Source of the DNA: Pontiella sp.
GTDB taxonomy: Bacteria; Verrucomicrobiota; Kiritimatiellia; Kiritimatiellales; Pontiellaceae
Direction of reading: 5' to 3'
DNA: 64,000 bases
Assembly: GCA_050290185.1 (NCBI GenBank)
Contig: JBNKHE010000007.1
Location: 96,001 to 160,000 of the forward strand
In this document: positions 11,839 through 31,383 of the stretch, one piece after another
Layout: every line of letters begins with the position of its first letter
Position numbering within the stretch: the first letter of the stretch is position 1
The notes under the pieces: model-generated
Seen by the model: only the letters and a program-made list of their open reading frames with translations
Told to the model about the DNA's origin: nothing
Databases searched by the model: none
Translations under genes and position numbers: made by a program

Positions 11839-11885
11839 GCGCGGTCTTCTATCAGAGTACCCAGGGCATAGCAAGCGGGGCGGAA

Positions 11886-12185
11886 CTAATTGTTGGGTAT
11901 TGAACCTAGCGTTGTAAGTAATTCAGGAGGCGGGTTGGTGATTTTCAGCCGTTTGTTGCGGCCGGTCTCGCCGGAAAGGATTTCGATGGTTGACTTGGCA
12001 ATCTTCCACTGCTTGGACAGGAACTTTACGAGGTAGGCATTGGCCTTGCCCTCCACCGGCGGGGCCTGGATACGCACTTTGAGTGCCTCGTCACCCATCA
12101 CGCCTGCGATGCCATCCCGGGAAGCGCGCGGTACAATCCGCAAGGTGATAATGATGTTTCCGTCCTTTTCTTCAAACCATGCCAT
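11886..12185 (-). CDS. DUF167/YggU family protein
   Basis: VPRASR, APPVEGKAN and SGETGRNK motifs. Confidence 0.9.
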   Translation of the reverse strand: MAWFEEKDGNIIITLRIVPRASRDGIAGVMGDEALKVRIQAPPVEGKANAYLVKFLSKQWKIAKSTIEILSGETGRNKRLKITNPPPELLTTLGSIPNN

Positions 12186-12237
12186 TGACTTCGCCTTCTT
12201 CGAAATTCGGGTTTTATTGCGCATTACGCTGAAATCG

Positions 12238-13194: not shown

Positions 13195-13206
13195 AAGGTC
13201 TGGTTC

Positions 13207-13908: not shown

Positions 13909-14290
13909 CCAGCGATACTCCCAGTTCAATAAACATGTGTTCAATCTCTTCGGTCGAAAAGAATCCCTGATGTCGGTAGAGCTCGTTGCCGTCCGCATCG
14001 AAAAAGATCTGTACCGGAATCAGTTCGACCCCGTATTCGTCGACAGCCTCCTCATGCTCCCAAACATCGATAAAATCAACTTGCAGCTTGCCGGCATGTT
14101 TTTTCCGGAGCTCCTCCAGTACTGGTTCCATCAGTGTACAGGCGGTGCATCCTTTGGAGCCCAGATCCAGCAGTCGCGGGATTCCGGTTATTTGAGCGGG
14201 GAGTGGCGTGCTGGTCTTTTCGGATTTTTTCAGCATAACCACACCTGCAATGGCAGCAATCACTAGGAAAAATATAATCAAGCGTTTCAT
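13898..14290 (-). CDS. Thioredoxin family protein
   Basis: N-terminal anchor, CTAC motif, IPVQIFFD. Confidence 0.9.
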   Translation of the reverse strand: MKRLIIFFLVIAAIAGVVMLKKSEKTSTPLPAQITGIPRLLDLGSKGCTACTLMEPVLEELRKKHAGKLQVDFIDVWEHEEAVDEYGVELIPVQIFFDADGNELYRHQGFFSTEEIEHMFIELGVSLDAG

Positions 14291-14300
14291 TACAGTATAC

Positions 14301-14660
14301 TCACTTTCGATAGATCTGCGTCAGTTCGTCGAGATCGGTGGCTTTGATTTTCTCCAGACGGATCCGGTCCTCCTCGATCTCCGGGGAATGTTCTACGGAC
14401 TCAAAAACCCAGTTGAGGGTATTCCATGAATCGGAACTCCGGTCGGCGAGGCGGTAGTGCATCCATCGCCCCTCCTTGCGTCCTTCAACCAAGCCCGCAT
14501 GTTTTAAAATGGATACATGTTTCGAAACCGTCGACGGGGCCAGTTTCAACAGTTCGATAATCCGGCACACACAGAGTTCTCCTCCGCGCAACGCCATTAG
14601 AATCCGCACCCGGTTCGGGTCGGCCAACGCTTTGGTCTTGGTCGTGAATGTCGCAATCAT
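14301..14660 (-). CDS. ArsR/SmtB transcriptional regulator
   Basis: ALADPNRVRIL, ELCVC, STVSKH and GRWMHY motifs. Confidence 0.92.
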   Translation of the reverse strand: MIATFTTKTKALADPNRVRILMALRGGELCVCRIIELLKLAPSTVSKHVSILKHAGLVEGRKEGRWMHYRLADRSSDSWNTLNWVFESVEHSPEIEEDRIRLEKIKATDLDELTQIYRK

Positions 14661-14813
14661 ATTTTTATAATTCGTCAAATAACGAAATAAAGATATCAGG
14701 CGAATCCAGATTGGCCAATCTTATTCATGAAAAAGGAGTCGTGGGGATGGTTCCGGCTTTCCGTGAGCAGAGATCTTTTGTTTAATGCGGCTTTTACTAT
14801 GAACGGAGTGGCA

Positions 14814-15761
14814 ATGGGTAAAACTTTCAGCAAAGTGGCTGTTTTGATGGGCGGTGTTTCATCGGAACGTGAAATTTCATTGAAATCGGGCAAAGCGATT
14901 GCGCAGGGACTGCGCGAGGGTGGATATGAGGTGCGGGAAATAGACATAACCGCAAAGCAGTTTTCCATCCCTGCGGATATCGAGGCGGTTTTTGTGGCGT
15001 TGCATGGGCAGTTTGGCGAGGATGGAGAAATTCAACAGATCCTGTCCGAAAAAGGAATGCCCTTCACGGGCTCGGGGCCGGAATCCAGCCGGGTCTCCTT
15101 CGACAAGATTCTAACCCGCCGGCAACTGGAGAAAAACGGCATTCCGATACCCCGGGGCGAGGTGGTTAAGAAAGCTTCGGACCGGACTGTTCCCGTACCG
15201 CTGGTGGTGAAACCACCCCGCGAAGGATCAAGCGTAGGGTGCTATCTGGTTTTCGAGGAACATGCGTGGGAGTCGGCATTCGAGGGCGCGGTGCAGTATT
15301 CCGGGGAGGTGCTGGTGGAGGAATACATCCCGGGTCGCGAGCTGACGGTCGGGGTGGTGGAGTCGATATCGCACGAGCCTTCGGCATCCGCTGTAGCTGC
15401 AGCAGACCAGTCGGCGACCAGACTCGTGCTGCCGGTGGTGGAGATAAAGACGGTGTCGGAGTGGTATGACTTCGATGCAAAATATGTGACCGGCGATACG
15501 CAGTATGTTGTACCTGCCGAGCTGGATGACGAGACAACTGTGCGGTTGCAATCCATCGCCCTTGCGACATTCGACTGCCTGGGAGCCTCGGGCTTTGGCC
15601 GGGTCGATTTCAGGCTGTCTCCCGAAGGCAAACCCTATGTGCTGGAGCTGAATGCCATCCCCGGATTTACCGCCACAAGTCTGCTCCCTAAAGCCGCTCA
15701 GGCGCATGGAATCGGTTTTTCAGAGCTTTGTTGTCGAATCATGGAAATGGCTCACTTGTGA
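14814..15761 (+). CDS. ddl: D-alanine--D-alanine ligase (last codons supplied by the island)
   Basis: GGVSSEREISLKSG, LHGQFGEDG, EGSSVG, RVDF and LELNAIPG motifs. Confidence 0.96.
   Translation: MGKTFSKVAVLMGGVSSEREISLKSGKAIAQGLREGGYEVREIDITAKQFSIPADIEAVFVALHGQFGEDGEIQQILSEKGMPFTGSGPESSRVSFDKILTRRQLEKNGIPIPRGEVVKKASDRTVPVPLVVKPPREGSSVGCYLVFEEHAWESAFEGAVQYSGEVLVEEYIPGRELTVGVVESISHEPSASAVAAADQSATRLVLPVVEIKTVSEWYDFDAKYVTGDTQYVVPAELDDETTVRLQSIALATFDCLGASGFGRVDFRLSPEGKPYVLELNAIPGFTATSLLPKAAQAHGIGFSELCCRIMEMAHL
15736..15754 (+). repeat. attL direct repeat
   Basis: GAATCATGGAAATGGCTCA, 18/19 identical to 31357..31375. Confidence 0.9.
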
Positions 15762-15857
15762 AAAAGTGCTGATATTAAAGGCTATTATCAATAATATAGC
15801 TTGCATTCAATACGTCACTTGATACAAAACGCTCCATCTTAACGAAGGGGCAAAATC

Positions 15858-17570
15858 ATGATGACACCAATCAATATTCCGCATTCCAAGCCTAGAGGGA
15901 AGCGAGGCACCTATGTCTATCGCCGAAGTATTCCGAAGGAGCTGCGGGAGAGTGTTGGGCAATCTGAGTATGTGATTTCGCTGAAGACCTCCAATCCCGT
16001 TGAGGCTGCTCCTCTGGCCATTGCCTTGGATGAGGAGCATACAGCTCTCTTCAAGCGTCTTAAGAGGCAGCTGGCGGAAGGACGTAAACCTGTTGACCCA
16101 TTAGCCGCCTTCAACGAGGTGCTAGCTCCCATGGTTCGCGATAGGGTAAACAGCTTTCTTAACGATGATGATTTCCTTGGCTGTTCAACCGAAGCCCTAG
16201 AAGAATACCACTGGCAGCTTCAACAATGCCATGACCGACTCTTCAATCTCCCTGAACTGGGTGACTGTCTATTGGATATCCATCTGGTTCATGAGGGGGC
16301 AACGATGACTCTCAAGGATTCCATGAGGCGTTTCTGTGGGTGGGTCGAGAGTATGCCCTATGGGACATCTATTCGGCTGTGGCGAAGAGTGCGCGGTCTG
16401 TTTGATGAAGCTACTAAAGCTCTAGGCGACGGGATCAAGGAGGAGTTGGAGAATGCATCTCCAGCCGGTTGGGAGCCTAGACAGTTGGTGGCCGCTGCCG
16501 CCGTCACGAAGAGAGATGACTCCAGAGGCCGAAGTTTGCGGGTAATCCTGAAGGAGTACCTTGGGTTAAACACCAAACGTGCTCCGAGTGCTATTCAAGG
16601 GATGACAAGCGACTTGGACTTATTCTTGGAGTTCTGTCAGAAGAGCGATATGGCCGTGACGGATGTGACGAAAGCAATGCTTACCGCCTTTCGGGATGAC
16701 TGCCTAGTGAAGCTGCCAGCCCAAAGGCACAGGAAGAAGGAACTGAAGGGTAAGAGTCTCTCCGAATGTATTCGTATCACAGAGAAGGAAGGCTTTGCCA
16801 AGCTGACTCCTGTCACCATACATGGCCGCTTTAAGACCCTCAGGACGCTCCTAGAACACGCGAAGACCGAGGGTGATATCCAGAGGAACCCAGCGGCCAA
16901 CATCAAGGCGGGGGAGCGTATGAAGGTCATTGCAGGGGGCGGCATGATGAATAAGAAGGCGTTCACCGCTGATGAGACAGAGGAAATGAAGAAGCTCATT
17001 GGGGATGAAAGCTTCAATATTTGGTTGGAGACCCCCGACTTTAAGTGGATTACGGCAATCGGCTATCACCAAGGCATGCGGTTAGGGGAAGTAACCCAGC
17101 TACAGAGCAAGGATGTTTACCTAGATCAAAGTAGTGGGGCGTATGTCATTTCGATTAATGATGATCACGAGAAAAAGAGTCTCAAGAAGCAATCCTCTAG
17201 GCGAATCATTCCGTTGCATCCTGAGCTACGCAAAATGGGGTTTCTTGAATACATCGATGCCAAGGGTATGCAGCCAGATGATTTCATCTGGTCTCAGAGT
17301 CTGAGCTGGGAGCCAAAGTGTAAATGGTATGGTAAGTATACTTCCACATACAGACGAAAGATTGCACCTGTGGCAGTACCTGATGCAGACCGGAGGAGGG
17401 AGCTTAAAGGATATCATTCGCTACGGCATTCGGCAATCTCTCGGATGCTGGCCAATGGGATTCCTGAAGATGAACGCAAAGGTATCGTAGGGCATAGTGC
17501 GGGGGATGTTCATGCTGGATATGCTGGGGGCATTACCGTTCAGCAGATGGCTAAATGGATGACCTATTAG
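15858..17570 (+). CDS. Tyrosine integrase with DUF6538-like N-terminus
   Basis: YVYRRSIPKEL...ISLKT N-terminus; catalytic GMRLGE, HSLRH, GH and Y (HAGY). Confidence 0.93.
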   Translation: MMTPINIPHSKPRGKRGTYVYRRSIPKELRESVGQSEYVISLKTSNPVEAAPLAIALDEEHTALFKRLKRQLAEGRKPVDPLAAFNEVLAPMVRDRVNSFLNDDDFLGCSTEALEEYHWQLQQCHDRLFNLPELGDCLLDIHLVHEGATMTLKDSMRRFCGWVESMPYGTSIRLWRRVRGLFDEATKALGDGIKEELENASPAGWEPRQLVAAAAVTKRDDSRGRSLRVILKEYLGLNTKRAPSAIQGMTSDLDLFLEFCQKSDMAVTDVTKAMLTAFRDDCLVKLPAQRHRKKELKGKSLSECIRITEKEGFAKLTPVTIHGRFKTLRTLLEHAKTEGDIQRNPAANIKAGERMKVIAGGGMMNKKAFTADETEEMKKLIGDESFNIWLETPDFKWITAIGYHQGMRLGEVTQLQSKDVYLDQSSGAYVISINDDHEKKSLKKQSSRRIIPLHPELRKMGFLEYIDAKGMQPDDFIWSQSLSWEPKCKWYGKYTSTYRRKIAPVAVPDADRRRELKGYHSLRHSAISRMLANGIPEDERKGIVGHSAGDVHAGYAGGITVQQMAKWMTY

Positions 17571-17730
17571 GTATTGGCTACCAAGGCCGCTTGAAGCTTG
17601 AGTGGTTGCATAGGAAAATCTCGAAGATTAGTTGGTAGTTGCGCTGGCGACTCTTCATAGAAATAAGAGGCCCAATCTGAGGTTACCCCTCGGAGTGGGT
17701 CTTGCTGTTTCAACGCCTAGAGTGTTCTGT

Positions 17731-20136
17731 TTAGGATTGTTGGGGTCTTTTCTTTATGAGTTTCCGGAACTGAGGTTGCTTGTTCCTCCATGTGAACCAA
17801 TACTCTACTCCAAGATAGAGCTCGTTCGTTCTGTCACAGATCTCAAAAAAATCCTTGTTATAAGATGCGTATTGCTTGTGTTTGTCGCTGGCTTTCTTCC
17901 ACGCTGTTGGCAAACCATTATGATCGGCACAGAGCTCTGTGCTGGTTAAAATCAGAATGTTATTGTATGGGCGACCAGCAACACGATTCGCTCTCGCCTT
18001 GTTTACCAATGGTTTAATCAACTTAATCTCATCAGGGCTCAACTTATCTTTCATGGTTGAAAAAACGAGAGTACAGCGTGGAAACTCTCTACCTAAGCGA
18101 CTCATGCGAGTGACATCTTTCTTTTCGAACAAGTTGAATGTTTTGCATTCTGCAAATATTACGATTTTCTTCGGGGCACCGTATCTTGATTCTTCGAAGA
18201 GAATCCCTAGGTCTGCTTCTAGGGGTTTTTGAGCTCCACCTTCTGATTTGCGAGCAGTAAAACTCATCATGGTAGTAGTAGCACCTTCAAAGACGCTTCT
18301 AAAAAACCTGAGTGACAGCAATACAGAGTAAGCACCTTGTGCGCTATTGGGTAAGCTAAACGGGCCGATCGTTCGGTAAGTCCATTTTAGAGCGTCAGGA
18401 TCTCCTGATGGTATTTCATAGGAGTCCAGACATTTTGGACACATCAGTGTGTAATCAGCTTCTGTGATTGAGAACCAAGACCGTTGCTGGCAAGTTGGGC
18501 ATTGACACTCTATCCCTAGTTGAAGCGCTCTACTATTTATTAACCCTTCGATAGTTCTGGTTCCGTCATCGTATAATCCTTCTTTATTGGCGATTTGTTT
18601 AATTCTATCGCGAAGTGCTTTCTTTTTTATGGTTTTCCCTTCGGAGTGCTCTGAAAGTAGCTTGATAACTCCCTTCGTAGCTAGAATGCCAATATACAAC
18701 TCTCCTCCGAGTTGCTTCAGCATTTGGGTTGCGATTCGTCCGGCTGTAGAGAGCTCAATATCCCATCCCTTTGCCTTCATCCATGAAGAAAAAACAGTTG
18801 TAGGGTTTAGAATCGGAACATGGATGTTCCATCTCGGAAAATCAGCTAAGTAAACTAGACCTTTTTTCGATAAGCGCCACTTAGGGTAGAACAATGGGAT
18901 ATGCATAGTTCTCTCATCATCTGGAAGAACTTCTGCTACAAGTTCGGAGATGGAATAGATGCGTACTTTTACTTCATTCGCAAAATGGGGGCCTCCACTC
19001 TGAGGGTATTTGGTAGCAAAAGATGGCGCTAAAGTATCGACGGTGGCTCGGTCTCCTGATACGCGTATATCATAACGGTCTACATTATCGCTCTCAATGG
19101 TATAGCTTACATTCTCCTGCGACTCATTTTGCCATATATGCGGGTACCAAGGTTGAGTAAAAAACTTAGCGTCACTCTTCTGCTCTGCAATAACTGCTCT
19201 TATATCCGAGATAAATGAATCTAGTTGATCTTTGGAGATATGAGCACTTGGTATTATAGTTGCCGCACGAATATCTGCCGGATTATCGGGGTTCCGATAT
19301 GTTTCTTCCGCCAAGAACTTAAACACTTGATCCAGTACGCTCTCGGTATCACTAACCTGAATCGGGATTGGTATTATGTTTCGCGCTGTCGCTCTGAGGT
19401 TTAAGTAATCGATGACATCTAGCGGCTGTGAAGCATCTAAGACGAATACACTTGAGTTGCCTAGGTGAAGATTTGTGGTTCGTACATCGCCGATGTAAAG
19501 AGAGGTCATTCTGCGATGAAATAAGTTCTGTGGATCAAGCAGGTCGAGAAAGTTGGTTAGTGAACAATCCACATCAACAAACTCTAGGGCGCTATACATT
19601 CCGCTCTTGGAATACAGTTCCTCAACTTCTTTACAGAGCGAGCCAAAGACAGAGGACAAAAAGAGTTTGTAAGGATGTCCGAAGGCTGGTGTTACTATTT
19701 TTGGGAGGTTACTGGGCTTAAATCGAAGCTCTTTTCTGTAATAATGGCGAAGTACCTCAAACGCACTAATACCATGAGAGATCGTTCCATCATTGCGAAT
19801 GCTTGCGATGAGGTCTGAAGCATATATGACTTCCCTGTTTTTACATGAAGAATGTTCCTTATCGGTTTTGTGGAAGCAGACAATGAAGTCTGGATCATAG
19901 CTATCTATATAACCTTTAACAAGGTCTGCTGGCTTCGCATTCGATGCAAATCGTTTTTTCCAGCTGCTAGGAATCCTTCTCAATAAAGGTATTGTTGGAT
20001 TATATTGTCCACCCCAAAGGAATGTATTGATTTCTATGGCCTTCAATAGTGATTTGGTGTCGTTGGGCCGAACCAGGAATGCGAGTCGTAATGGTCGAAG
20101 AGTTTGTTCAATATTGACATTGTCCATCGCATTCAT
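17731..20136 (-). CDS. 801-aa protein with Zn ribbon and C-terminal PD-(D/E)xK-like nuclease; putative defence protein
   Basis: CPTC...CPKC; EADL...FAECK; AAGGA RBS; AT-rich cargo gene. Confidence 0.7.
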   Translation of the reverse strand: MNAMDNVNIEQTLRPLRLAFLVRPNDTKSLLKAIEINTFLWGGQYNPTIPLLRRIPSSWKKRFASNAKPADLVKGYIDSYDPDFIVCFHKTDKEHSSCKNREVIYASDLIASIRNDGTISHGISAFEVLRHYYRKELRFKPSNLPKIVTPAFGHPYKLFLSSVFGSLCKEVEELYSKSGMYSALEFVDVDCSLTNFLDLLDPQNLFHRRMTSLYIGDVRTTNLHLGNSSVFVLDASQPLDVIDYLNLRATARNIIPIPIQVSDTESVLDQVFKFLAEETYRNPDNPADIRAATIIPSAHISKDQLDSFISDIRAVIAEQKSDAKFFTQPWYPHIWQNESQENVSYTIESDNVDRYDIRVSGDRATVDTLAPSFATKYPQSGGPHFANEVKVRIYSISELVAEVLPDDERTMHIPLFYPKWRLSKKGLVYLADFPRWNIHVPILNPTTVFSSWMKAKGWDIELSTAGRIATQMLKQLGGELYIGILATKGVIKLLSEHSEGKTIKKKALRDRIKQIANKEGLYDDGTRTIEGLINSRALQLGIECQCPTCQQRSWFSITEADYTLMCPKCLDSYEIPSGDPDALKWTYRTIGPFSLPNSAQGAYSVLLSLRFFRSVFEGATTTMMSFTARKSEGGAQKPLEADLGILFEESRYGAPKKIVIFAECKTFNLFEKKDVTRMSRLGREFPRCTLVFSTMKDKLSPDEIKLIKPLVNKARANRVAGRPYNNILILTSTELCADHNGLPTAWKKASDKHKQYASYNKDFFEICDRTNELYLGVEYWFTWRNKQPQFRKLIKKRPQQS

Positions 20137-20691
20137 CCTTCTTTAACCCATCAACAAGTAACCTATTTCATTTTTTGGTGCAATCATCTGAATGCCTATA
20201 TGTGAAAGAAGCGAGTCCAAGTTTCCCCCGTGGGGGTATCGTTTCGATAGGGGTGGGGGAGCTGAAAACACCCACTAATAGGATGGGGAGACAGAAGGTC
20301 ATCCCATATGGTAAAGTTGTGCGGCTCGTTGCTTGGAGACTCCTAGTTGCTCTCCTATACGGGTAAAGCTCTGGCCTTCGGTCTCCACTATTGAAGAGGA
20401 AGACGCTCAGTCTCGGTATCATTCTGTATCAAATAGACCAATCAACAGCACAGGACTCGTTCTTCTTATTACGTTGTAGCCAAGCATATCAACACCGATT
20501 GCAAAACCGTACGTCGATCCTATTGTTCGACAGCATTGTGAGAGAATCCGAGTATTTACTGAGTCCCGCCCCAATCAAATCGACAAGCAACAGGGCTGAC
20601 CTCGTGACTTCTCTTAGCTGCTTACTTTAGGAAGAAAGCGTCCTTCTGAACGTCCAGTTCAAAGAATCGGTTTATTGTGTCTAGAATAGGT

Positions 20692-20898
20692 GGCACCCAT
20701 GCATGCTTCATCCCGCATATGAACCAGATTCTTAGGTCTGTATTCTGCCGCATGTATGGCGACACGAATATGCTGGCTGAGTTCAAGAGGCAGATCGAAG
20801 AGCAGAGCGAGGGCTTCGATGTGGAATACCCTGAGCCGCCTACCCAAGGCGGTCTCGATGTAAGTCAGGTGATGTATTCGCAGTACTTTTTTGCCTAG
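20692..20898 (+). pseudogene. C-terminal fragment of a T7-type single-subunit RNA polymerase
   Basis: GTHAC..HMNQILRSVFCRMY...LAEF...PEPPTQGGLDVSQVMYSQYFFA* matches the post-motif-C end of T7/mitochondrial-type RNAPs; the upstream HDS motif is missing. Confidence 0.85.
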
Positions 20899-20940
20899 CC
20901 TGCATCACTAGTGTTACACCCTGTCAGAGAGGGTGTTGCG

Positions 20941-20963
20941 CTTATTCCCTCACTATAGGAAGA
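20941..20963 (+). promoter_or_regulatory. T7/T3-like phage RNAP promoter (+1 about 20958)
   Basis: CTTATTCCCTCACTATAGGAAGA vs T7 TAATACGACTCACTATAGGGAGA and T3 AATTAACCCTCACTAAAGGGAGA; 42 nt after the RNAP fragment stop. Confidence 0.75.
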
Positions 20964-21294
20964 ATGACGGGCAACTCTCCGTTTCTCTTCAAGCCACACC
21001 CGTGGCCACTCTCTTGCGTATCAGCCTCACCGCCTTCCATGGTTTTTGTTTCTCCTGTCCATGGTCGAGCGGTCGAGCATCGCTTTGGTTTTGCTGAGCT
21101 GCTTGGCTAACTTAGTGGGGAACCTATGGGCTATTGCCCGTACCCGCTCAAAGCCTCACTCAAAGATTTTCTCTCGATGCATCTCAAACCGCTGCAAATA
21201 GATAGGTACATATTTGTAGTGTTTGTGGTCGCTTCACGAGGCAGCAACTTGTTTGCCCATTCCCATTTTAATCAACCTAAGAAAGGAACCCAAA

Positions 21295-23055
21295 ATGTTA
21301 AACACAAAAGAAGTATTCGACCTTGCAAGAGCACAGAAGTTAACCCTAACGGATGATCCGTTGGCAGTCGTAAATGCGTACCCAGATAGTCTCGGTGTTC
21401 AGCTTTTCGATTGGCTTTGGGGAGAACTCGTTGAGGAAGGCCGAACGACACGCAATAAGCCAAACTTTAAATGCACCCGAACGGGAAAGGACTTGCGCGG
21501 AGTTGAAGTTAAACGTCAAGCAATGGCCGCTGTGCTGCTAGACCTCCTGTATTATGATGTCGTGGCCATCTACGGTGACGAACATATGTACACGCGCAAA
21601 GTGGGGCTTCCTGATCGATTGTCAATCAGTGGAATAGCTGTTCCTTCATGGTATCGCTATTCATCACTTTTGGTTTGGCTTGAGGCTGAACTTAAGCACC
21701 GCAACCTGTTGACTGTTTCGCAGGGGTGGCCAACTTTTCAGAACGAGAAGAGCGGCTATAAGATCACAGGTAGGCCAAACCTTTGGGCTGCTGATGGGCG
21801 ACTTCTGACACGACTTGAACTCGTGAAATCCTGTTCCAATCTCGCGGGGTTCTTCCCAGAGAAACGGCGGGACTGTATCGACCTGAAGCAAAACGGGGAG
21901 TCGGACTATTTACGAGCACCAGACCTCCTGATTCAAAAGAAGGATGAACTTGGTAAGGCTCAACCTTGGGCTGTATCCGGTAACTCTCTTGCTGATGAAA
22001 CCCGAAGACGTTTACTCGCAGTCAATCGCTTCAATGTTGAACATGATTGGACGGCATACCGTGCGAATCTAAGTGATGCCTTGAGTATAAGCGACACTCT
22101 TCGGGAACGGTTACTGTTTGCTCAAAATATGGATGACAAGCAGAAGCGGAAAGCTCGTCGAAGAGCTGCCGCTGATATGCTCGGTGTAACACACGGAGGG
22201 GACATTGAGTTCCGCAAGACCGTTGAGGTGATGCCGAATGTCTTCTCCAATGTTGAAGTGCCGGTAGGTGTCTTATCAAAGCAGTCAGAGCCGATCTTCA
22301 AGAACATACCTGTTGACCGTCGAGGGAACACGATGCTTCTGGAGTACGAGCGGAAGCTGGTTGACCCATGGCACACCATGCGGATTGCTGGCAGTCGGTC
22401 GGAAGAGATGGCTATCGGTCGAATGTATTGGAGCATGTCGCATATTCAGAAAGCACTTCGATTTTCACTTCAGGTGAACGGAGAGTCGACAGTTGAATGG
22501 GACTTCAAAAATATGCATCCGAAAATCTTGTACGGTCGAGCCGGTATCAAAGAGGTAACCCATGACCTCTATGATTATGTGTGTGATGAAGTGGGGGACT
22601 CAGAGCTGGTCTTGAGGCCACTCGTTAAGGTGCTCTTCAATGCCATGATAAATGCTAAGACCCCCGATGAGGCATTTCGTGCCGCTAATCGGAGCATGTA
22701 TAAGAATCCACACCAACCAAAGAAGCGGGATGTTTGGCTACCCATTGCGGAGAAAGTCAGAGGTCTAAACAATGGAGTTTACTCTTCGGATTTTCTGATG
22801 CCGATTATCCGAAAAGTTCATGCCCCCATTGCCGATTATTTCTGTACCGGTATTGGAGTAGAGCTTCAGGCTGTGGACGCTGAGATCGCTCTGAGGGTCA
22901 TGGAAAGATGTACTCAAGATTACGGACAACCGGTTGTCGGTATTCACGATTCGTTCCGTGTCCAAGAGTCGGCTGAGAGTTCGCTCAGACAGGTGATGAG
23001 GGAAGTCTCGGAAGAGATTCTAGATGGGACGGTTCTGGAGATAACGAAGAGCTGA
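21295..23055 (+). CDS. Divergent superfamily-A (PolA/T7-RNAP-like) polymerase with no recognisable exonuclease domain
   Basis: GRMY; motif A EWDFKNMHPKILY; motif B RPLVKVLFNAMIN; motif C GIHDSF; AAAGGA RBS before ATG 21295. Confidence 0.8.
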   Translation: MLNTKEVFDLARAQKLTLTDDPLAVVNAYPDSLGVQLFDWLWGELVEEGRTTRNKPNFKCTRTGKDLRGVEVKRQAMAAVLLDLLYYDVVAIYGDEHMYTRKVGLPDRLSISGIAVPSWYRYSSLLVWLEAELKHRNLLTVSQGWPTFQNEKSGYKITGRPNLWAADGRLLTRLELVKSCSNLAGFFPEKRRDCIDLKQNGESDYLRAPDLLIQKKDELGKAQPWAVSGNSLADETRRRLLAVNRFNVEHDWTAYRANLSDALSISDTLRERLLFAQNMDDKQKRKARRRAAADMLGVTHGGDIEFRKTVEVMPNVFSNVEVPVGVLSKQSEPIFKNIPVDRRGNTMLLEYERKLVDPWHTMRIAGSRSEEMAIGRMYWSMSHIQKALRFSLQVNGESTVEWDFKNMHPKILYGRAGIKEVTHDLYDYVCDEVGDSELVLRPLVKVLFNAMINAKTPDEAFRAANRSMYKNPHQPKKRDVWLPIAEKVRGLNNGVYSSDFLMPIIRKVHAPIADYFCTGIGVELQAVDAEIALRVMERCTQDYGQPVVGIHDSFRVQESAESSLRQVMREVSEEILDGTVLEITKS

Positions 23056-23288
23056 CCGAAGAACCGCATTGCAGCTGGCAGTAAGGCTGGCTGCTAACTG
23101 CTTCCACTTATTGCCAGCTCTGCTGAGATGGGAAGATACCACGGAGAGTTGCAACCTCCTGTAGGTATCATTTCCTCCTGTCTCGCTTCGCTCCACTAGG
23201 ATTGCACAGGTTATCCCTGCACATGTCGTAACATCTTAAACATTAATGAGAAAGGAGGGGTCGAGTATCCCGAACAATAAGGAGCAAA

Positions 23289-24092
23289 ATGCAAAAATCA
23301 AACAGAAGAAACTTCACGCCTTCACCCGTAGCTGTAGCAATGGCTTCCCCCAAAGGTGGACTGAGCCGCGAGGAACAGATAAGGCGTGACCGTCTGGCCA
23401 ACGCAAAGAAAGGATCGAATGAGGCCGTAAAGGTGAAGGCCAAAAGCCGTCGCTATGGGTTGACCCAGAAGGGGAATAGCTCCGGCATACCTTGTGTCGG
23501 TCTCGCTCGCTTCAACCCTAAGATGCTGAGTCGCCATACTCGGAAAAGCATTCTGCCCGCTCAGTTGGGGGTAGCTGCTGCATTGGGCCACCTACCAAGA
23601 GGAGATAAAACTCTCCCACTCCAAGCAATATGGCGACAACGTACACGAGCCGGTAGCGGCGACCGTGTAGCAAGGGGCTTGAAGCCAGCCAAGACGCGAG
23701 TAACAACGTGTCTCTTGGAAGCTGGCGTTTGGTCTGACACCGATAACGATGTCATTGCGGGGAAGTTCAAAGGATCTCACCTTGGATGCCAAGCGGCAGC
23801 GGATGGCTACTGCGAGAAACTCGGACAATGCCGCCTTTTGCTAGAGACCCTCGTGAGGCTTGGAGAGTTCTCTCAGCTACCCGATGCCAATCAGCGTCAA
23901 GATAAGCTACTGCATCTTCCTTCAAGTCGTACCTGTTGCGTAGGCTGGAAGCGGCTCCTGTACTGTCTGCTGCTGCCGACCAAATGCGCGGACTTCATGA
24001 CTGACTCAGCGCGTAACCTTGTTGCTCAACTGGCTAGGAACGCTGGGCTAACCGTTGACCGCCATGGGAACTGCGAGGAGCCGAAACGATGA
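23289..24092 (+). CDS. Hypothetical basic protein
   Basis: TAAGGAG RBS; 267-aa Lys/Arg-rich ORF co-oriented with the polymerase. Confidence 0.7.
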   Translation: MQKSNRRNFTPSPVAVAMASPKGGLSREEQIRRDRLANAKKGSNEAVKVKAKSRRYGLTQKGNSSGIPCVGLARFNPKMLSRHTRKSILPAQLGVAAALGHLPRGDKTLPLQAIWRQRTRAGSGDRVARGLKPAKTRVTTCLLEAGVWSDTDNDVIAGKFKGSHLGCQAAADGYCEKLGQCRLLLETLVRLGEFSQLPDANQRQDKLLHLPSSRTCCVGWKRLLYCLLLPTKCADFMTDSARNLVAQLARNAGLTVDRHGNCEEPKR

Positions 24093-24177
24093 ACACAACA
24101 CAATCATGCAGCCGACTAAGCTTCAGAGAAAAAAGGGCAGTCCATACCGCCCGTGAGTGTATGGGGAAAGAAAGTAA

Positions 24178-24789
24178 ATGATTAGACAGCTAAGCTTCAC
24201 AGATGCTGTGAGGCGTGAGGCTCTTGCTAAAAGTAGACTTGAACGAGTCAACCAGAAGTTAGAAGCCATAGGGGATAATAAGTCCTCAACGATGAAGCGA
24301 GAGCTTCTGTCGAAGCGGGAACTGCTGCTGAAAAAGAAAGAAAGGCTTGAAGTGACCCTTCGAGATATTCAGCAGATGGTTGCTGCACACCAAACCAGAA
24401 CCGGTAAGGAACTTCCATATGTTCGGCATTGTCAGTTGAAGGCTGAGGCTGATGCCAAGGAACAACTGAGAGTAGAGCTTGAGCATCTGAAAGCAACTGC
24501 AACAGAACTCCCTGAGGGTGGCAAGGTAGTCAATGACTCCGATGCCATTCTTCAAGGTGTGAGTCAAGAAGCGTTGGACGCTGGGTTGCTCCAGATTCAA
24601 GAAACTCTCAGTGGTTTACTTAGAGGGAAGCCTCTGGTTGAAGTCCCCTCAGATGTTAAGCGTACACCGCCCAAGCCAAAGCCCAAGGTATCACCTGTAG
24701 CTGCCCCGATGAATAAACCCACGGTTGCACCTGCTCTAGACCTGAGCGGTCTTGATGAACTCTTGGCGGAATGCGAGGCGTTGCCGTGA
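24178..24789 (+). CDS. Hypothetical coiled-coil protein
   Basis: Heptad-rich N-terminal half, Pro/Lys linker, acidic tail. Confidence 0.75.
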   Translation: MIRQLSFTDAVRREALAKSRLERVNQKLEAIGDNKSSTMKRELLSKRELLLKKKERLEVTLRDIQQMVAAHQTRTGKELPYVRHCQLKAEADAKEQLRVELEHLKATATELPEGGKVVNDSDAILQGVSQEALDAGLLQIQETLSGLLRGKPLVEVPSDVKRTPPKPKPKVSPVAAPMNKPTVAPALDLSGLDELLAECEALP

Positions 24790-25277
24790 GACATCCAGAA
24801 CATTCAAGGCACTACAGCCTAGAAGCAAGGCAGAAGCTGGATGCTATCTATCGGCGCATTGATCGAAACCAAATGATGAAGGAAGCAGAGCAGCTAAAGT
24901 ATCCTGAAGGCCGTCTCCCCACGCCATGGCCTGAGCGGTATCAACGGCTGTATGATAAGTGGCTAGAGTTGGAGCATGAAGGCTTCGCGATACGACTCCA
25001 TGAAAGTAGAAGATTCAATGATGAGCTTTCGTCCAAGTACTGCGAGAAACTCAGAAAGCTTCACTCCATCTGGCGGTACTTACCTGAAGATGATCCGCGA
25101 AAAGTTGCAACCCAAGCGGCCATCGAAAAGTTGGTGAATCATATCAATGGTCAGATGGAAGGCTTAGCCTATTTGTTTGTTCCTGAGCTGAAACCAACAA
25201 ACCGCCTTTGCGGTGGAATCTCAGATTCAGCACTCAATGAGATAGCCAGCGACTATGTTTCGAAAGCAGGGTGCTAA
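24786..25277 (+). CDS. Hypothetical protein
   Basis: GTGA start/stop overlap with the upstream gene. Confidence 0.7.
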   Translation: MRHPEHSRHYSLEARQKLDAIYRRIDRNQMMKEAEQLKYPEGRLPTPWPERYQRLYDKWLELEHEGFAIRLHESRRFNDELSSKYCEKLRKLHSIWRYLPEDDPRKVATQAAIEKLVNHINGQMEGLAYLFVPELKPTNRLCGGISDSALNEIASDYVSKAGC

Positions 25278-25278
25278 G

Positions 25279-25653
25279 ATGGATGAACCTAAGGCCACCA
25301 CAAGCGACCGACTGAGTGCTCTATGCAATCAACTCCAGGGATTGCTCAAAGTCCGCCATGAGCTGCCTCATTTGACCGTCACACCGTCCGAGTTGGTTGA
25401 TCATGAGTCAGGTATGGTTTGTCTGACTGTCACCTTCAAGGACGGCAAGAAGCTCCTCTCGGTTATCACTGGAGATGCAGACCTCAATGCAGAGGAAGGT
25501 GTCAACGATATGGTGACACTCCGAGCGGAAGCCCATCGCTGCCTATGTGGGTATCTCCAGTCTATGTGGGATATGTTGGTCGCCAACGAAGAGTTGCTTG
25601 TGGACTTTAACTCGAAGATCCGCACAAAGAGAACTCTTGGCGGCGGTGCGTAA
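25279..25653 (+). CDS. Hypothetical protein
   Basis: ATG 1 nt after the upstream stop. Confidence 0.7.
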   Translation: MDEPKATTSDRLSALCNQLQGLLKVRHELPHLTVTPSELVDHESGMVCLTVTFKDGKKLLSVITGDADLNAEEGVNDMVTLRAEAHRCLCGYLQSMWDMLVANEELLVDFNSKIRTKRTLGGGA

Positions 25654-25905
25654 TCCCATCAAGAAACAAACAGTAGGTGAAGTGGCCTGCAACCCATCAC
25701 ATTTTATCCGTCGGTGAAATGACCGATACCCTAGACTCGACGGCAGAACTTGCCGCTCTTAACCGAACGTCCCTCAACACCTAAATCAGTAATCAAGACC
25801 CCGTTGTAGCTATGCATAAAGTATGGCGCGGGGTCTTGCTGGTTTACACCGATTGTATTTTGCAATCACAGGCTCTCTCCGCCTATGGAGAAGAAAGCAT
25901 GTACG

Positions 25906-26241
25906 ATGAAAAGTTACACTGACTACACCCCTGAAGAGTTGTCCGAACTCTCCAAAGACCCAGCTAGGTTTCAAGAGCTGGTTGCCGAGGCCAACGGCGA
26001 ACTTGCAATGAAGCAGAACGCTCAGCAAGCCGAACAGGCAATCGCTCAGAACAAAGCCAATGCTGAACTTGAAGTCACCCAAGAGCGCGAACGCCAAGTT
26101 GAAGACCTCCAGCAGCATTTGGATGCTCAAGGCTACAACGCAAAAATGACCGGCAAAGGGTTGGTCTTGAATACAGCTCCAATGAACCCGCTTACGGGTC
26201 GGGCCTATGGCGACACAGGTGCAACCGTAGACGCTGGCTAG
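25906..26241 (+). CDS. Hypothetical Gln/Ala-rich coiled-coil protein
   Basis: ORF in the same direction; helical composition. Confidence 0.7.
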   Translation: MKSYTDYTPEELSELSKDPARFQELVAEANGELAMKQNAQQAEQAIAQNKANAELEVTQERERQVEDLQQHLDAQGYNAKMTGKGLVLNTAPMNPLTGRAYGDTGATVDAG

Positions 26242-26282
26242 AAACCGAACCACAATCAAAACTATCAAAAGGAATAAACTAA

Positions 26283-26843
26283 ATGAAAAACGAAGCAAAC
26301 ACCCAAGAGTTCACCCTGCCTAAGCAACTGAATATCACCACTACTGTTCCAACCTCACAGCTGCCTCTTCTTCGAGTTGAGACCGTCGAGGGAATGAGCA
26401 TTGCGGCAAACGACAGGGTGAACCTGCCTTGGTTGGCGGCCAATCTGCACCTAATCACTGAAGCCCAGTGGGAGTTCATTAAGTGCGACCTGAAGAGCAT
26501 CCTAATGGGAATCCTAATGGAGAACGTCAACGCGACGAAGCGGAACCAACGCATGGTCGAGACCGCCCAGAAGCAAGCAGACGCACGTAAGGCGGCTCAA
26601 GAGGAGTCCAACCTGTCTGACTTGAAGAAATACCTGTTGCCTTCCGAGGCCGCCATTATGGCTGCCACATGCGGGAACTCATCTTCCAAGGAAAAGAAGT
26701 TCATGGTGAACCTCTTCAAGGAGCTGGATATCATGAACCCAGACGGCTCGTGGAATGAACAGGGAATCTACATGCGAGAATGGGAGCTTGAGGCAAAACT
26801 TTTGGATCGTGAGCCTGTGAATCTCGTTGAAGTGCCGAAGTAA
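26283..26843 (+). CDS. Hypothetical protein
   Basis: AAGGA RBS; followed by a terminator. Confidence 0.75.
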   Translation: MKNEANTQEFTLPKQLNITTTVPTSQLPLLRVETVEGMSIAANDRVNLPWLAANLHLITEAQWEFIKCDLKSILMGILMENVNATKRNQRMVETAQKQADARKAAQEESNLSDLKKYLLPSEAAIMAATCGNSSSKEKKFMVNLFKELDIMNPDGSWNEQGIYMREWELEAKLLDREPVNLVEVPK

Positions 26844-26874
26844 TTAAACCATCTGTCTTCTAAGATAACCCCAT

Positions 26875-26915
26875 AAACAGGGAGAGTGCCATTAAGGTGC
26901 TCTCTCTGTTTTTTT
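26875..26915 (+). terminator. Intrinsic terminator ending the polymerase operon
   Basis: AAACAGGGAGAGTGCC-attaa-GGTGCTCTCTCTGTTTTTTT. Confidence 0.85.
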
Positions 26916-27120
26916 CGTTAGCGGGAGTCGAGTAGCGAGAAGGGGAGTTTGAAAAGATCCTTGGCGGTCATGTGGCTGTGAATCTCGTTCAGGTTCACAA
27001 GCAGTAGTATGACCTGCTAGCAAAGTTTGCTAGGGATGGCTTGAAGACCCACTTTCAGGGAAAACTCTGGGGTGGGATTGTGACTTGCCTTAACGGCTTC
27101 GTTATGAATAGATCTTTCAT

Positions 27121-27798
27121 GTGAAAGAGGGTTCTAGTAAGAAAAAAACTTCGATTGACTGGAAAGGTGTATGGGCCGCCGTCGGGTTGCTGTTTGTTGC
27201 ATCCTGCTTGTATTCATATACCCATGATACATTTGCCACACTGGGTGTGCTTATTTTTGCAGTTATAGTCATGGCGGCTAGAAAGAAATACAATGAATTG
27301 TTTGTTCTGATTTGCCTTTTCTCGTCCATATTTTTCTACATCATTGGTGCAGCACACATCGCAATCGTTATTGTGTGCATACTTCTCATTCAACAGTTCA
27401 TTCGCACCATCAATAGAAAATTTAACTATGATGAAGTTTTTCCTTATTTTGGCATATTAACGATCCTTATTGGGTTTTATTCTGGAATCTATGCAAAGTA
27501 CGGAATGCTGGAAAACGGAAAGCTGATTTACGATCAACCTAGCGCTACATATTTTAGTATCGTTACATGGACGACTCTTGGCTATGGGGATATCCAGCCG
27601 AGTGAAGAATCAAGAGGTTGGGCTGCAAGCGAAGCACTGTTAGGTTATATTTTCATGGCACTTGGCATCGCATTGTTTGCTCATGTAGTGAACTCTAGGC
27701 AACATTTGCGCTCAGAAATGGGGGCGATGAAGATTAGTGAGAACGAAGCACCCGCTTCACAATCGCATAATAACGGTGATAGAAATGACACTCGGTGA
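27121..27798 (+). CDS. Potassium channel family protein (Ion_trans_2-like pore)
   Basis: YFSIVTWTTLGYGDIQP pore helix and selectivity filter; extra N-terminal TM helices. Confidence 0.85.
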   Translation: MKEGSSKKKTSIDWKGVWAAVGLLFVASCLYSYTHDTFATLGVLIFAVIVMAARKKYNELFVLICLFSSIFFYIIGAAHIAIVIVCILLIQQFIRTINRKFNYDEVFPYFGILTILIGFYSGIYAKYGMLENGKLIYDQPSATYFSIVTWTTLGYGDIQPSEESRGWAASEALLGYIFMALGIALFAHVVNSRQHLRSEMGAMKISENEAPASQSHNNGDRNDTR

Positions 27799-28564
27799 AA
27801 TTACGATTATTTTTGCGGTTTTAGAAGTTCCAATCATGCTGTTGGGCAAGCTCGATTATTATCTTTCTGCGAGCGTAAAAGACAAAGTCGGTGATCTCTT
27901 ACTAGCAGTAAATCAATCGGTTAAGCATGCATTGTCATGGAGGTTCTATTTTGTGTTGCTGTTTTTCAGCATGTTTTTTACGACGATTATTTTCGGTTTT
28001 ATGGGTTTGGCAGATGTTTTCCTAAGTTCAGGAAGCTCCGAGACGATAGCGTTAAAATCAGCAGCGCCCATATTATTGGCTTTGGTTTTGAAAGTTATCT
28101 TTTGGGATTACTTAATGGCACTAAAGTCGGCGTGGCTTATGAAAGCATACCTATCAGTTGAGGTGGTCACGAAAGCAGACAAAGCTCAGCTTGTAATAAG
28201 TATTTTCACAGACCTTGCTTTAACTGCATTTCTAACAAGTATATTTATTAATTTCGGAGGGCTTCTTCAAGAGCATGCCTCTGATGTTGCAAGCTCAGAA
28301 GTTGTCCGCCCATTGTCACTGAAGCTATCTGAGTTCTTTGATGAGATTAAGTTTGCTATAATGAAATCTGTACAAAATGCTCATTATTTTTTGAATGGAT
28401 CGCTGGCGTTCTATATCTGCTTTATGCTTGCTTGGCTCGGAAGAGATGAAAGCGGAATCACAGAATCAGGTCGAATTCGAACATCTCCATTTCAGACTAT
28501 TTCTTTGATTCTGACGATATTGATAGTGGTGCTATTGGGTGCCTTTTATATGGCGGACAAGTAA
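27785..28564 (+). CDS. Multi-pass membrane protein
   Basis: About 6 hydrophobic segments; overlaps the channel gene stop. Confidence 0.75.
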   Translation: MTLGEITIIFAVLEVPIMLLGKLDYYLSASVKDKVGDLLLAVNQSVKHALSWRFYFVLLFFSMFFTTIIFGFMGLADVFLSSGSSETIALKSAAPILLALVLKVIFWDYLMALKSAWLMKAYLSVEVVTKADKAQLVISIFTDLALTAFLTSIFINFGGLLQEHASDVASSEVVRPLSLKLSEFFDEIKFAIMKSVQNAHYFLNGSLAFYICFMLAWLGRDESGITESGRIRTSPFQTISLILTILIVVLLGAFYMADK

Positions 28565-28720
28565 TTGACACGCTTATAAGTCAATGGTGTCTTCCTGTAC
28601 GCCGTACCTTCGCCGACTTCCCTTTAATGACCGGAAGGAAGAGCTTGAAGAGGAACCCAATGATGAGTAGGGGGAGGAGCCAAGGGTGGGATAGGAAGAG
28701 GGATTCTAGGATTTGAGAGG

Positions 28721-29299
28721 TCATGACAGGGTGGTTTGATTCCCTCGCCGCAAATCAGCAGGAAGTAGTTTGTCGATTTCTTGTTCTGAAAACGTGAGTT
28801 CTTCGTTTACCTGTAATGCTGTCGTTGCGGCCTTATATGCCTTGCTGATAGTGCGGGGGCTTCCTTCATAAATATTTTTCAACTGCATTTGCAGAGCATC
28901 CCTTCTGTTAATTATTTCATCGGTGTTGATGACTCCGGCATTGATGTCAGTTAGAAGGGCTAAATAGCTTTCACGCACATCCCATAGGTCATTTGCTGCA
29001 TCAGAGTGTTTTTGTGAAACTTGGCCGAGGTCACTTCCTTTGACGTAGGTGTTAAGTGCTAGCAACGCCGCAGAGATAAGACCTGTTATAATGCCGCATA
29101 CTGGACTCTCTCCCAGCACGGTGGTAAATACGCCTGTGGTTGTTAATGCCGACAAGATAATCTGAATGATTTTGATGGTTGAGTTGCGTGAGAATACAAT
29201 GTCAGCACACTTTTCTTGGGTTTTGTGGCTCCATGCAACTCGACCAAAGCATTCACGGATATGCGACTCAAGGATCTTAACTTGGGAATCGGACGCCAT
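28721..29299 (-). CDS. SLATT-family 2TM effector (CBASS)
   Basis: IRECFGRVAWSHKTQEKCADI, two TM helices, LWDVRESY; overlaps the CD-NTase end. Confidence 0.85.
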   Translation of the reverse strand: MASDSQVKILESHIRECFGRVAWSHKTQEKCADIVFSRNSTIKIIQIILSALTTTGVFTTVLGESPVCGIITGLISAALLALNTYVKGSDLGQVSQKHSDAANDLWDVRESYLALLTDINAGVINTDEIINRRDALQMQLKNIYEGSPRTISKAYKAATTALQVNEELTFSEQEIDKLLPADLRRGNQTTLS

Positions 29300-30158
29300 A
29301 AATCTCTCTCCATTTCTGCTTTGCTGACCATTCTTTATTTTTTGACTGATATTCGATTGCTTCAAGTGATTTATTATATGCAACTGTCGCTTTATATCTG
29401 AAGTTTGTAATGTTTGAAATCCACTGACCACTACCTATTGCAAACCACAAGGTTTTATCTGATGGCTCGTTCTTGAGATATTGAAAAAAATCTCGGCTCA
29501 TCCAGTCATAGTACAGGTAAGATTGGTGTTTATTACTCCAGTTGGTAAGAAAACGGTAGGCGAGAGTATCGATTAGAAGACCATTAATCGGAACTGTGCA
29601 GTAATATTTCCATGCCCGAGCCATTCGGCATAGGTTTTTTAGGTTATAGTTGGTAAGAATGTTCCCGTTGTTGATGGCGTCTATTTCGGGAATCGGATTC
29701 GTGACCTTCCAGCTTCCACCATTATTTGAGTCTGCATGAGTGTATTTATTATCAGTACCTACTTTGAAAACAGGGAGTACCTCAAACTTCGTCTGGTCGG
29801 AAAAATCCACTGTAACTATCTGACCGTCCCCTTTAAGTGTGGTCGTTGGATATGTTTTGGCAATAGAGTTCTTTACAGCCTGAATCAATGCTGACTGGCC
29901 ATTTCCAAGATAATCACTGTATTGGTGGTATGTTCGTAGTGGCATTTCAAATAGCATGTCAATATCACTTACCCACCCATTAGCAGTTCCGCGACCGTAT
30001 GAACCCACGAATCTTCCTCCTGAGGTCGTGTCCATGTGCCAGAAATCAAGATTTAGGCGCTTACAAATAGCTAAATACCTATCTGAAATAGTCGACTTCA
30101 TATTTGTGGAGATCTTTAGATCATCGCTAAAGTGCTTAAAATATTGCTCTTCACTCAT
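29277..30158 (-). CDS. SMODS/CD-NTase cyclic oligonucleotide synthase (CBASS)
   Basis: VGSYGRGTA...SDIDMLF, DGQIV, FEVLP, GSWKVTNP and NLCRMARAWK motifs. Confidence 0.9.
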   Translation of the reverse strand: MSEEQYFKHFSDDLKISTNMKSTISDRYLAICKRLNLDFWHMDTTSGGRFVGSYGRGTANGWVSDIDMLFEMPLRTYHQYSDYLGNGQSALIQAVKNSIAKTYPTTTLKGDGQIVTVDFSDQTKFEVLPVFKVGTDNKYTHADSNNGGSWKVTNPIPEIDAINNGNILTNYNLKNLCRMARAWKYYCTVPINGLLIDTLAYRFLTNWSNKHQSYLYYDWMSRDFFQYLKNEPSDKTLWFAIGSGQWISNITNFRYKATVAYNKSLEAIEYQSKNKEWSAKQKWREIYGVRFPS

Positions 30159-30258
30159 TTCATCGACTCGTAATCATATTGAAAATATACTGCTAATAAT
30201 GTACGAATCTATATTTGCACTTAATATTAGTATTTTCAAGATGGATGGGTAGTAGGAC

Positions 30259-30978
30259 ATGGAAAACTCACTCGATTTATTGACAGACGAACGGGAACTA
30301 ACCAAGTTCATGGACAATCCTACGAGGGCAGTTGCTGAGGTCTTCATTGGGATCATGAAATCCGATAAGTGGTCTAAATATGAATCTGGATTTCGGTTGT
30401 TTGATTCTCTTCTCAAGAAACGGCTAATCCAGCAACTTGTTTCCGAGGTCGAACGGTATCAAGAAGCAGGCAAGGTCAAAATGGACTACATGGAGACCGA
30501 CTATAACAGGATGGCCCTCAAGGAGGTCTTCAAGATTATCGATGAAGATCCCCCAGACGAAGAAAAGTTCAAGGCCATCAAGTCGCTGTTTCTTTGTAAC
30601 ATCGAAGGAAAGGCGACAGAGGGAGACCAGATGCTGACTTATCAGTATTTGCAGGTCGTGAACAAACTCTCTTCGGGCGAAATAATTCTGCTCAAGAGCA
30701 TGTGGGAAGCCAAAGACTACTCTAAACGGAAAGATGGGGTCACTTACCAGTTCAAGGATGAGTTCAAACGAAACTGGTGTAACGCAATGGCGATTCAGGC
30801 GGGATTCTCCTCAAAGCACGGGACTTTGGTTGAACTTCACGCCAAGAAACTCCACGAACTCAGACTAATGGGAAAACTGCCAGAGCCAGTGCTTGATGGA
30901 CACATCAATCCATCCGAGAACAACATGCTGACTCCTTTGGGGATTAATCTGTGTGAGTTCATCACAAAGTATGGGTAA
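30259..30978 (+). CDS. Hypothetical protein, possibly Abi-alpha/DUF4393-like
   Basis: KLSSGEIILL and C-terminal LTPLGINLC pattern; family assignment tentative. Confidence 0.55.
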   Translation: MENSLDLLTDERELTKFMDNPTRAVAEVFIGIMKSDKWSKYESGFRLFDSLLKKRLIQQLVSEVERYQEAGKVKMDYMETDYNRMALKEVFKIIDEDPPDEEKFKAIKSLFLCNIEGKATEGDQMLTYQYLQVVNKLSSGEIILLKSMWEAKDYSKRKDGVTYQFKDEFKRNWCNAMAIQAGFSSKHGTLVELHAKKLHELRLMGKLPEPVLDGHINPSENNMLTPLGINLCEFITKYG

Positions 30979-31186
30979 CAAAACTCCAGAGAAACCTTGG
31001 TCTTAAACCCAACAAGAAATGCTAGAGGCCATGGCAGACCCTAGATATTCGACTTGTGAATCATGCCGAAGAACAGTTCGAGACAGATTTAAATGCTCAC
31101 CTTGGTTTGAGGTCGATATCCCCAAAAAACCTAAAGCCCATTTTCTTGACCATCTCAGGCATCTGAGCGGAGCCGCAAAGGGCTGA
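30971..31186 (+). pseudogene. Small ORF with a T7 gp9 scaffold-like C-terminal motif; in-frame TAA at 31004-31006 (or a 55-aa ORF from ATG 31019)
   Basis: MGNKTPEKPWS*TQQEMLEAMADPRYSTCESCRRTVRDRFKCS vs T7 gp9 EMIKAMSDPRYRTDANYRRQV (recalled); start overlaps the upstream stop. Confidence 0.6.
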
Positions 31187-31354
31187 ACATTCAAGTGCAA
31201 GACCGGTTTGGCTTGGAGATTTCTTGCTGAGGCGAAATTATTTTCATACCTCGACCTGATACAGCAATCAGTACATATTTCAAAATGTATCAAAATATCA
31301 CCTTTTGTAAGGTTTTGCATTGCAGTGATTTAGTGTTTTGGTCGAAGGTGGGCG

Positions 31355-31383
31355 TTGAATCATGGGAATGGCTCATCTATAGT
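31355..31383 (+). promoter_or_regulatory. Putative hybrid sigma70 promoter for ftsQAZ across attR
   Basis: TTGAAT-N17-TATAGT, 26 nt upstream of the ftsQ ATG. Confidence 0.6.
31357..31375 (+). repeat. attR direct repeat (displaced original ddl 3' end)
   Basis: GAATCATGGGAATGGCTCA followed by TCTATAG, reading MAHL*. Confidence 0.9.

Follow-up and report, generated by a model that had tools for sequence, protein, structure and literature searches.

The DNA analysed here (the window) is a stretch of 64,000 nucleotides from Pontiella sp. (contig JBNKHE010000007.1, positions 96,001 to 160,000 of the forward strand). It contains a 15.6-kb island that is inserted in the end of ddl. Close to the right border of this island, at a distance of 250 nt, lies a short piece that resembles the C-terminus of the T7 scaffold protein gp9. 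The features of the island are as follows:

15733 to 15754, plus strand: attL, within the 3' end of ddl (named by NCBIfam); direct repeat D10
15858 to 17570, plus strand: 570-aa tyrosine integrase with weak Xer-family matches
20692 to 20898, plus strand: end of a T7-type RNA polymerase gene (68 codons plus stop; phrog_414 positions 751-816 of 816)
20941 to 20963, plus strand: T7-class phage promoter-like site with a predicted +1 at 20958, facing the core genes
20958 to 21294, plus strand: leader of 337 nt, modestly structured, without Rfam match
21295 to 23055, plus strand: 586-aa family-A-polymerase-like protein, the first core gene (phrog_4756, E 9e-35)
23289 to 26843, plus strand: six co-oriented ORFs without significant family match
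28721 to 30158, minus strand: CBASS-type pair of a SMODS cyclase and a SLATT_4 two-helix effector (Pfam, PADLOC)
30259 to 30978, plus strand: 239-aa cargo ORF without significant Pfam, PHROG, PADLOC or NCBIfam match
30971 to 31186, plus strand: frame of the preliminary description, comprising 11 non-homologous codons, a TAA, the gp9 tail and 26 extra codons past the lost stop
31007 to 31105, plus strand: decayed end (33 codons) of a T7-type scaffold (gp9) gene (phrog_1052), ungapped to the terminal aromatic residue
31354 to 31375, plus strand: attR, just upstream of ftsQ

In six relatives, the ddl-ftsQ junction is uninterrupted, and a contig from another study (run X7) joins position 15735 to 31357. 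One genome (G019) with a seemingly element-like ftsQ junction was set aside, as its 9.3-kb contig holds no island genes. A contig of run X2 joins 16750 and 29432 with only 28 nt on the short side, which is likely an assembly artefact. Just left of ddl (11212-14678), genes for an ArsR-like regulator, a thioredoxin-like protein, a DsbD-like protein and a permease were named by eye.

Homologues of the integrase are present in 10 of 52 other genomes of the genus, and phrog_4756 genes are found near integrases in the islands of this genus. Two of these islands (G017 and G352) carry a homologous integrase together with a phrog_4756 gene and neither of the two phage gene tails. In the G017 island, a T7-class-like site of 13.9 bits lies between integrase and phrog_4756 gene (L048 14938, minus strand); its score is within the genome background range. 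The 586-aa protein of the window has 3139 relatives at E<=0.001. Its residues Asp403 and His551-Asp552-Ser553 are conserved, and in a fold comparison it matched enzymes of the Pol A type (E about 1e-4, TM about 0.25). A full-length homologue with 31% identity (P0002) is available without DNA context. When this protein was used to search for relatives of the island, one weak locus was obtained in genome contigs and none in viral or metagenome contigs. The six ORFs at 23289-26843 appear to form the core operon. The CBASS-type pair is assigned with high scores (Pfam E 1e-39 and 6e-65; PADLOC E 1e-119 and 2.5e-77). Additional cargo includes an 801-aa minus-strand ORF at 17731-20136 without NCBIfam or PADLOC match. 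A potassium-channel-like ORF (Ion_trans_2, E 1e-9) and a membrane protein without family lie at 27121-28564. For the 239-aa ORF at 30259, the nearest named Atlas cluster carries PF14337 on 25% of its members (score 0.91), a faint lead towards a relationship with Abi_alpha, and no homologues were found with this query in 400 other genomes of the phylum or in plasmids.

The RNA polymerase tail and the promoter-like site behind it are a stronger feature than the gp9 piece. The tail, which is absent from the preliminary description, is unbroken over 68 codons to its natural stop and matches phrog_414 with an E-value of 6.9e-15 and 160 phage records at E<=0.001. As it starts just after the catalytic Asp motif, an enzyme cannot be made from it. 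Among 53 genomes of the genus and 401 of the phylum, phrog_414 is matched in this genome only. The predicted +1 of the promoter-like site lies 60 nt past the stop of the polymerase tail. With a 16-site mixed-phage matrix, made from sites in the gaps between genes 8 and 9 and genes 9 and 10 plus 4 of 17 T7 sites, this site ranks first among 7,143,696 genome positions (19.0 vs. 15.1 bits). It ranked second with an earlier mixed matrix that included non-promoter sites, and it falls outside the genome top 8 with a T7-only matrix (4.6 bits). The next-best sites of the island have scores of 11.2 and 10.6, which fall in the genome background. The leader downstream of the predicted +1 has a fold z of -2.66, and 1 of 100 shuffles was equally stable.

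In the T7 record, phi1.1A is located 26 nt after gene 1 and phi10 31 nt after gene 9, and a promoter directly follows gene 9 in 13 of 14 Pseudomonas-type loci, the remaining locus ending there. After the gp9 tail of the island, no promoter is recognisable (best matrix score -1.7); a degenerate promoter inside or behind this tail was also rejected. When 262 phage ORFs were compared with the island, only the two tails were matched, in addition to a weak match of T7 gp13 (E 0.002). Searches for the donor phage returned no locus with the polymerase tail, and 23 loci with the promoter pattern, none of which has a polymerase or gp9 gene within 1.5 kb.

The gp9 piece was initially noticed as part of a hidden small ORF at 30971-31186. 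Translation reproduces the peptide quoted for this frame; codon 12 (31004-31006) is a TAA, a further ATG follows in frame at 31019, and the first ATG sits within the last 8 bases of the ORF 30259-30978. The ending given there for T7 gp9 is the same as in the T7 record, and the proposed likeness to it is genuine. A profile search for the T7 capsid assembly family had been suggested, and the fragment 31007-31186 matches the PHROG family phrog_1052 ("head assembly") with an E-value of 3.8e-5 over profile positions 261-291 of 293. The Pfam family PF05396 gave an E-value of 0.014 and 16.2 bits, which is under the cut-off of 27.1. For the form that starts at ATG 31019, the phrog_1052 match weakens to E 0.0058 and PF05396 is not matched. 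In a control scan of stop-to-stop fragments of 40-200 aa from the island (150 of 162 scanned), only 3 of 150 had a PHROG match at E<=0.01, namely the gp9 tail, the RNA polymerase tail and a third fragment at 0.0048. In whole-genome searches with phrog_1052, this site ranked best in three overlapping samples (301 genomes of the phylum, 53 of the genus and 301 of the class); its E-value was 1.3e-4, and the runner-up (0.004) covered a different region of the profile.

The 33 residues encoded by 31007-31105 show a gap-free alignment to the ends of phage gp9 proteins with 36-48% identity, which finishes on the terminal Trp of Pseudomonas phage gp9 tails. A single-sequence tblastn search with this 33-aa core gave matches to 24 of 50,697 phage records at E-values of 0.1-7; 20 of these matches are annotated as scaffold or head assembly, three are unannotated and one is hypothetical, the latter being a duplicate of an annotated one. 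Matches of the Cys-rich part to Streptomyces phages (29 of 52 records) were rejected as chance, with E-values of 1-8 among the matches listed. A 38-kb record of a plasmid database (hit H105) carries a gp9 tail (55% to T7) and may in fact belong to a T7-like phage.

The homology is confined to the codons behind the TAA. With a profile of 16 gp9 tails, built partly from matches to the window itself, the in-frame read-through scores 31.3 bits, the fragment alone 32.0 and the forms starting at ATG 31019 21-24. The TAA marks the break, because reading through from the codons before it adds no score to the gp9 match. A shifted frame that places Gly-Leu ahead of the fragment reached 32.4 bits, compared to 31.3 in frame and 32.0 alone, and was not retained; a one-base loss ahead of the fragment is possible. 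A sense codon in place of the TAA was sought in contigs of runs X2 and X4, which are both possibly from the source sample, and they showed no other letters at 31004. From what these contigs show, an assembly error is not the source of the TAA.

The frame 30971-31186 has a significant match to the C-terminal motif of the gp9 family, but it is not a full-length gene (about 215-330 aa), and the neighbours of the piece are the 239-aa ORF and attR, not portal or major capsid genes. The piece is derived from gp9, yet it is not a family member in a working sense. What the comparison confirms is the sequence of the frame and its homology, not its status as a gene.

The suspicion in the preliminary description that this frame may be decaying is supported by the loss of two family-invariant residues and of the natural stop. 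Short gp9 relatives were collected with an alignment that included the window, and 120 of the 200 that passed (323 candidates) were listed and examined. Asp17 and Tyr/Phe20 are each present in 120 of these 120 relatives and in 22 of 22 intact tails, and both are replaced by Cys in 31007-31105. All 120 listed relatives also have an aromatic residue two places ahead of the fragment, where no in-frame one exists here. With a profile of the 120 relatives, the gp9 piece scores 25.8 bits, which is under all 22 intact tails (38.0-73.8) and above the shuffles (2000 made, 1577 reported, maximum 17.5). In intact tails, the stop follows 32-36 residues after the start of the match, while in this frame it follows after 59, so that the natural stop is gone and the gp9 tail is continued by 26 unrelated residues. 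The core AMxDPRY motif is intact and the 55-aa frame from 31019 is open. As the searches did not reveal the donor phage, the change of these residues is deduced from family-wide conservation. The element is present in one genome only, without a second copy, which allows neither a dN/dS estimate nor the comparison with an intact ancestor.

Coding tests for this region are weak. For the two ATGs, the energy of pairing with the anti-SD sequence amounts to -3.7 and -4.1 kcal/mol, compared to -5.5 to -8.5 in seven of eight genes; a real gene at 25255 reaches only -2.7, weaker than either ATG. The codon-position score of 31019-31183 is -0.017 and lies between the means for genes (0.111) and for wrong frames (-0.058), closer to the wrong frames, with 13% of true gene windows scoring below this ORF.

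We consider 31007-31105 to be a non-coding scar, with a probability of roughly two in three. In this reading, a tyrosine-integrase island picked up the 3' end of the scaffold gene of an autographivirus, and the sequence has since drifted. The central observation is that two gene ends of one phage family are present on one strand of one island, one of them followed by a putative promoter. The island would have taken up DNA of a T7-like phage by recombination, and the gene ends would have come along with the promoters behind them, either in two events or as one fragment that was later hollowed out. Since T7 genes 1 and 9 have promoters within about 30 nt, gene tails would ride along with captured promoters. 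The left promoter would have been kept because it allows the RNA polymerase of an infecting T7-like phage to switch on the core operon. The right piece may have decayed, and the missing promoter there fits a loss of selection; promoter capture is unproven for the gp9 piece, because no promoter is left after its tail. A peptide from 30971-31186 is not expected. The wider proposal, in which the island is a satellite or defense element of a T7-like phage of this phylum, assembled from gene ends of that phage, and the promoter of the gene 1 end turns on the core operon at infection, is tentative, with chances slightly under even.

Of the other explanations, an origin as a temperate T7-like prophage survives best, although it appears unlikely. 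The island would then be a dead remnant, the inside of which was deleted and refilled, and the integrase and the tails of gene 1 and gene 9 would represent the skeleton. In line with this, integrase, polymerase tail and scaffold tail are collinear and on one strand, and temperate T7-like phages have an integrase near the polymerase gene, as described in PMC10134795 and seen in the Lo5R7ANS map. On the other hand, intact polymerase, replication and virion genes are missing from the island and no other phage gene survives. In addition, the integrase homologues of the genus islands adjoin phrog_4756 genes without any T7-like gene, and T7-type polymerases are found in 0 of the 400 other phylum genomes.

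The preliminary description had proposed a stand-alone scaffold mimic that blocks or redirects the capsid assembly of a helper phage or acts as a decoy for the upstream protein. By analogy with P22 and 80alpha, the C-terminus of gp9 is taken to bind the coat protein in T7. For scaffold-coat binding, this analogy draws on PMC12005531 and PMC5644958; a literature and structure search found neither a paper nor a solved structure for binding of the gp9 C-terminus to the T7 coat protein, nor any solved structure of gp9. A precedent for such a mimic is the SaPI protein CpmB of 72 aa (PMC5644958), whose C-terminal motif is also present in the scaffold of the helper, with which it competes for binding to the capsid protein. 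As described there, a dimerisation domain precedes this motif in CpmB, and the function is lost upon small changes. A comparable small protein, starting at ATG 31019 or derived from a recent longer frame, would be consistent with the real scaffold-end homology, the open 55-aa frame and an island that is seemingly tied to T7-like phages and carries defense cargo. Against this idea, the motif is N-terminal here, its front is cut, the two invariant positions are changed, the unrelated residues follow, and the start signals at both ATGs are weak.

The available relatives do not support a stand-alone form either. The gp9 motif is the end of a long frame in all 21 viral loci that were confirmed among 512 pattern matches and in all six metagenome loci from 335 pattern matches, with frames of 265-391 aa from stop to stop in 24 of the 27 loci and frames running off the locus edge in three. 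A stand-alone small ORF with a gp9 tail was thus found in none of these loci with DNA context, and a single-sequence search for small homologues gave no candidate. In the 52 other genomes of the genus and in 14 regions, the gp9 tail was not found, which is a weak test since no close relative of the island is available. The short gp9 relatives (P0153-P0272) are often about 50 or 99 aa long and start at conserved internal Met codons. They come as proteins alone, without DNA context, and 13 of the 120 are on contigs over 10 kb. The 19 that were inspected in full have ordinary gp9 sequence upstream or start at internal Met codons. These proteins are probably cut or frameshifted genes, but they may include real short forms or internal-start products.

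While the motif match is significant in the PHROG profile, homologous stand-alone small ORFs were not seen, the codons before the TAA are non-homologous and the invariant residues are lost. The mimic, in its blocking, redirecting or decoy variants, is therefore improbable. The proposed two-gene unit with the upstream protein is likewise unsupported: homology to gp9 is lacking in the 11 codons ahead of the TAA, the start at 31019 corresponds to an internal Met of the gp9 family, and the searches gave no homologue of the upstream gene in which a linkage could be traced. Very doubtful is also the joint reading in which the promoter-driven island has recast its gene 9 end as a 55-aa Cys-rich, CpmB-like capsid-binding mimic.

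The piece could also have been kept as DNA or RNA, serving as a homology patch for recombination with a helper phage or as a packaging or processing signal. Its location, 250 nt from attR and in the section that excision would bring next to the integrase gene, would suit such a role, and over 36 nt it shares 78% identity with gene 9 DNA of phages (E 0.22). Nevertheless, no DNA-level match exists in the 50,697 phage records, the region has a fold z of only -1.49 and it lacks an Rfam match, which leaves this role with a slim chance. A likeness by chance, to which the single-sequence tblastn values of only 0.1-7 and the Pfam score under the cut-off could point, is the least probable of all, considering the best rank in three genome panels and the scaffold annotation of 20 of 20 informatively annotated matches, and it is largely refuted by the polymerase tail 10 kb away, which is unambiguous and comes from the same phage family.

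For the scar as the preferred reading, the gp9 piece is a case of ordinary decay when regarded as a gene, and its value is that of a witness to the uptake of T7-like phage DNA by an island; in the phylum concerned, a T7-type polymerase is absent from all 400 other genomes searched. The two tails and the promoter suggest a route by which islands acquire phage promoters, i.e., the capture of gene ends. In addition, the two peptide tags and the one promoter provide handles for finding the donor phage, and switching of the island by a phage polymerase is made testable by a reporter.

With T7 gp9-type proteins (phrog_1052, PF05396), the piece shares the last 33 residues at 36-48% identity and the same terminal residue. 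Different from gp9 genes, the piece lacks about 85-90% of the gene, has two invariant residues replaced by Cys, has lost the stop and is not accompanied by a portal or capsid gene. Temperate autographiviruses, such as LUZ100 (PMC10134795) and Lo5R7ANS, have the same order of integrase, RNA polymerase and scaffold on one strand. In contrast to these phages, the island holds two gene tails only, and replication, structural or lysis genes are not recognised. The small protein of the preliminary description would resemble SaPI CpmB (PMC5644958) as a satellite protein with the C-terminal motif of the helper scaffold. CpmB, however, is an intact expressed gene, and the sequence families are unrelated.

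Similar to T7-responsive satellites, the island combines an integrase with att repeats, and empty sites exist in relatives. T7 islands with tandem promoters are reportedly the subject of a 2006 article by Chen and Schneider (by its title; NAR 34:1133). With T7 islands, the present element shares the integrase, a T7-class promoter by sequence match and the lack of an intact phage polymerase. In E. coli chromosomes, matches to the junction of T7 gene 9 and phi10 cover the promoter side only (12 listed of 20), and matches to the end of T7 gene 1, among those listed, are laboratory strains. A literature search, which covered few subscription papers and no supplements, returned no description of an island with gp9 or gene 1 tails. 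Unlike T7 islands, the element has one promoter instead of tandem promoters, occupies ddl instead of a tRNA gene and bears coding tails of genes 1 and 9, of which the latter is probably a dead remnant with real homology to the phage scaffold.
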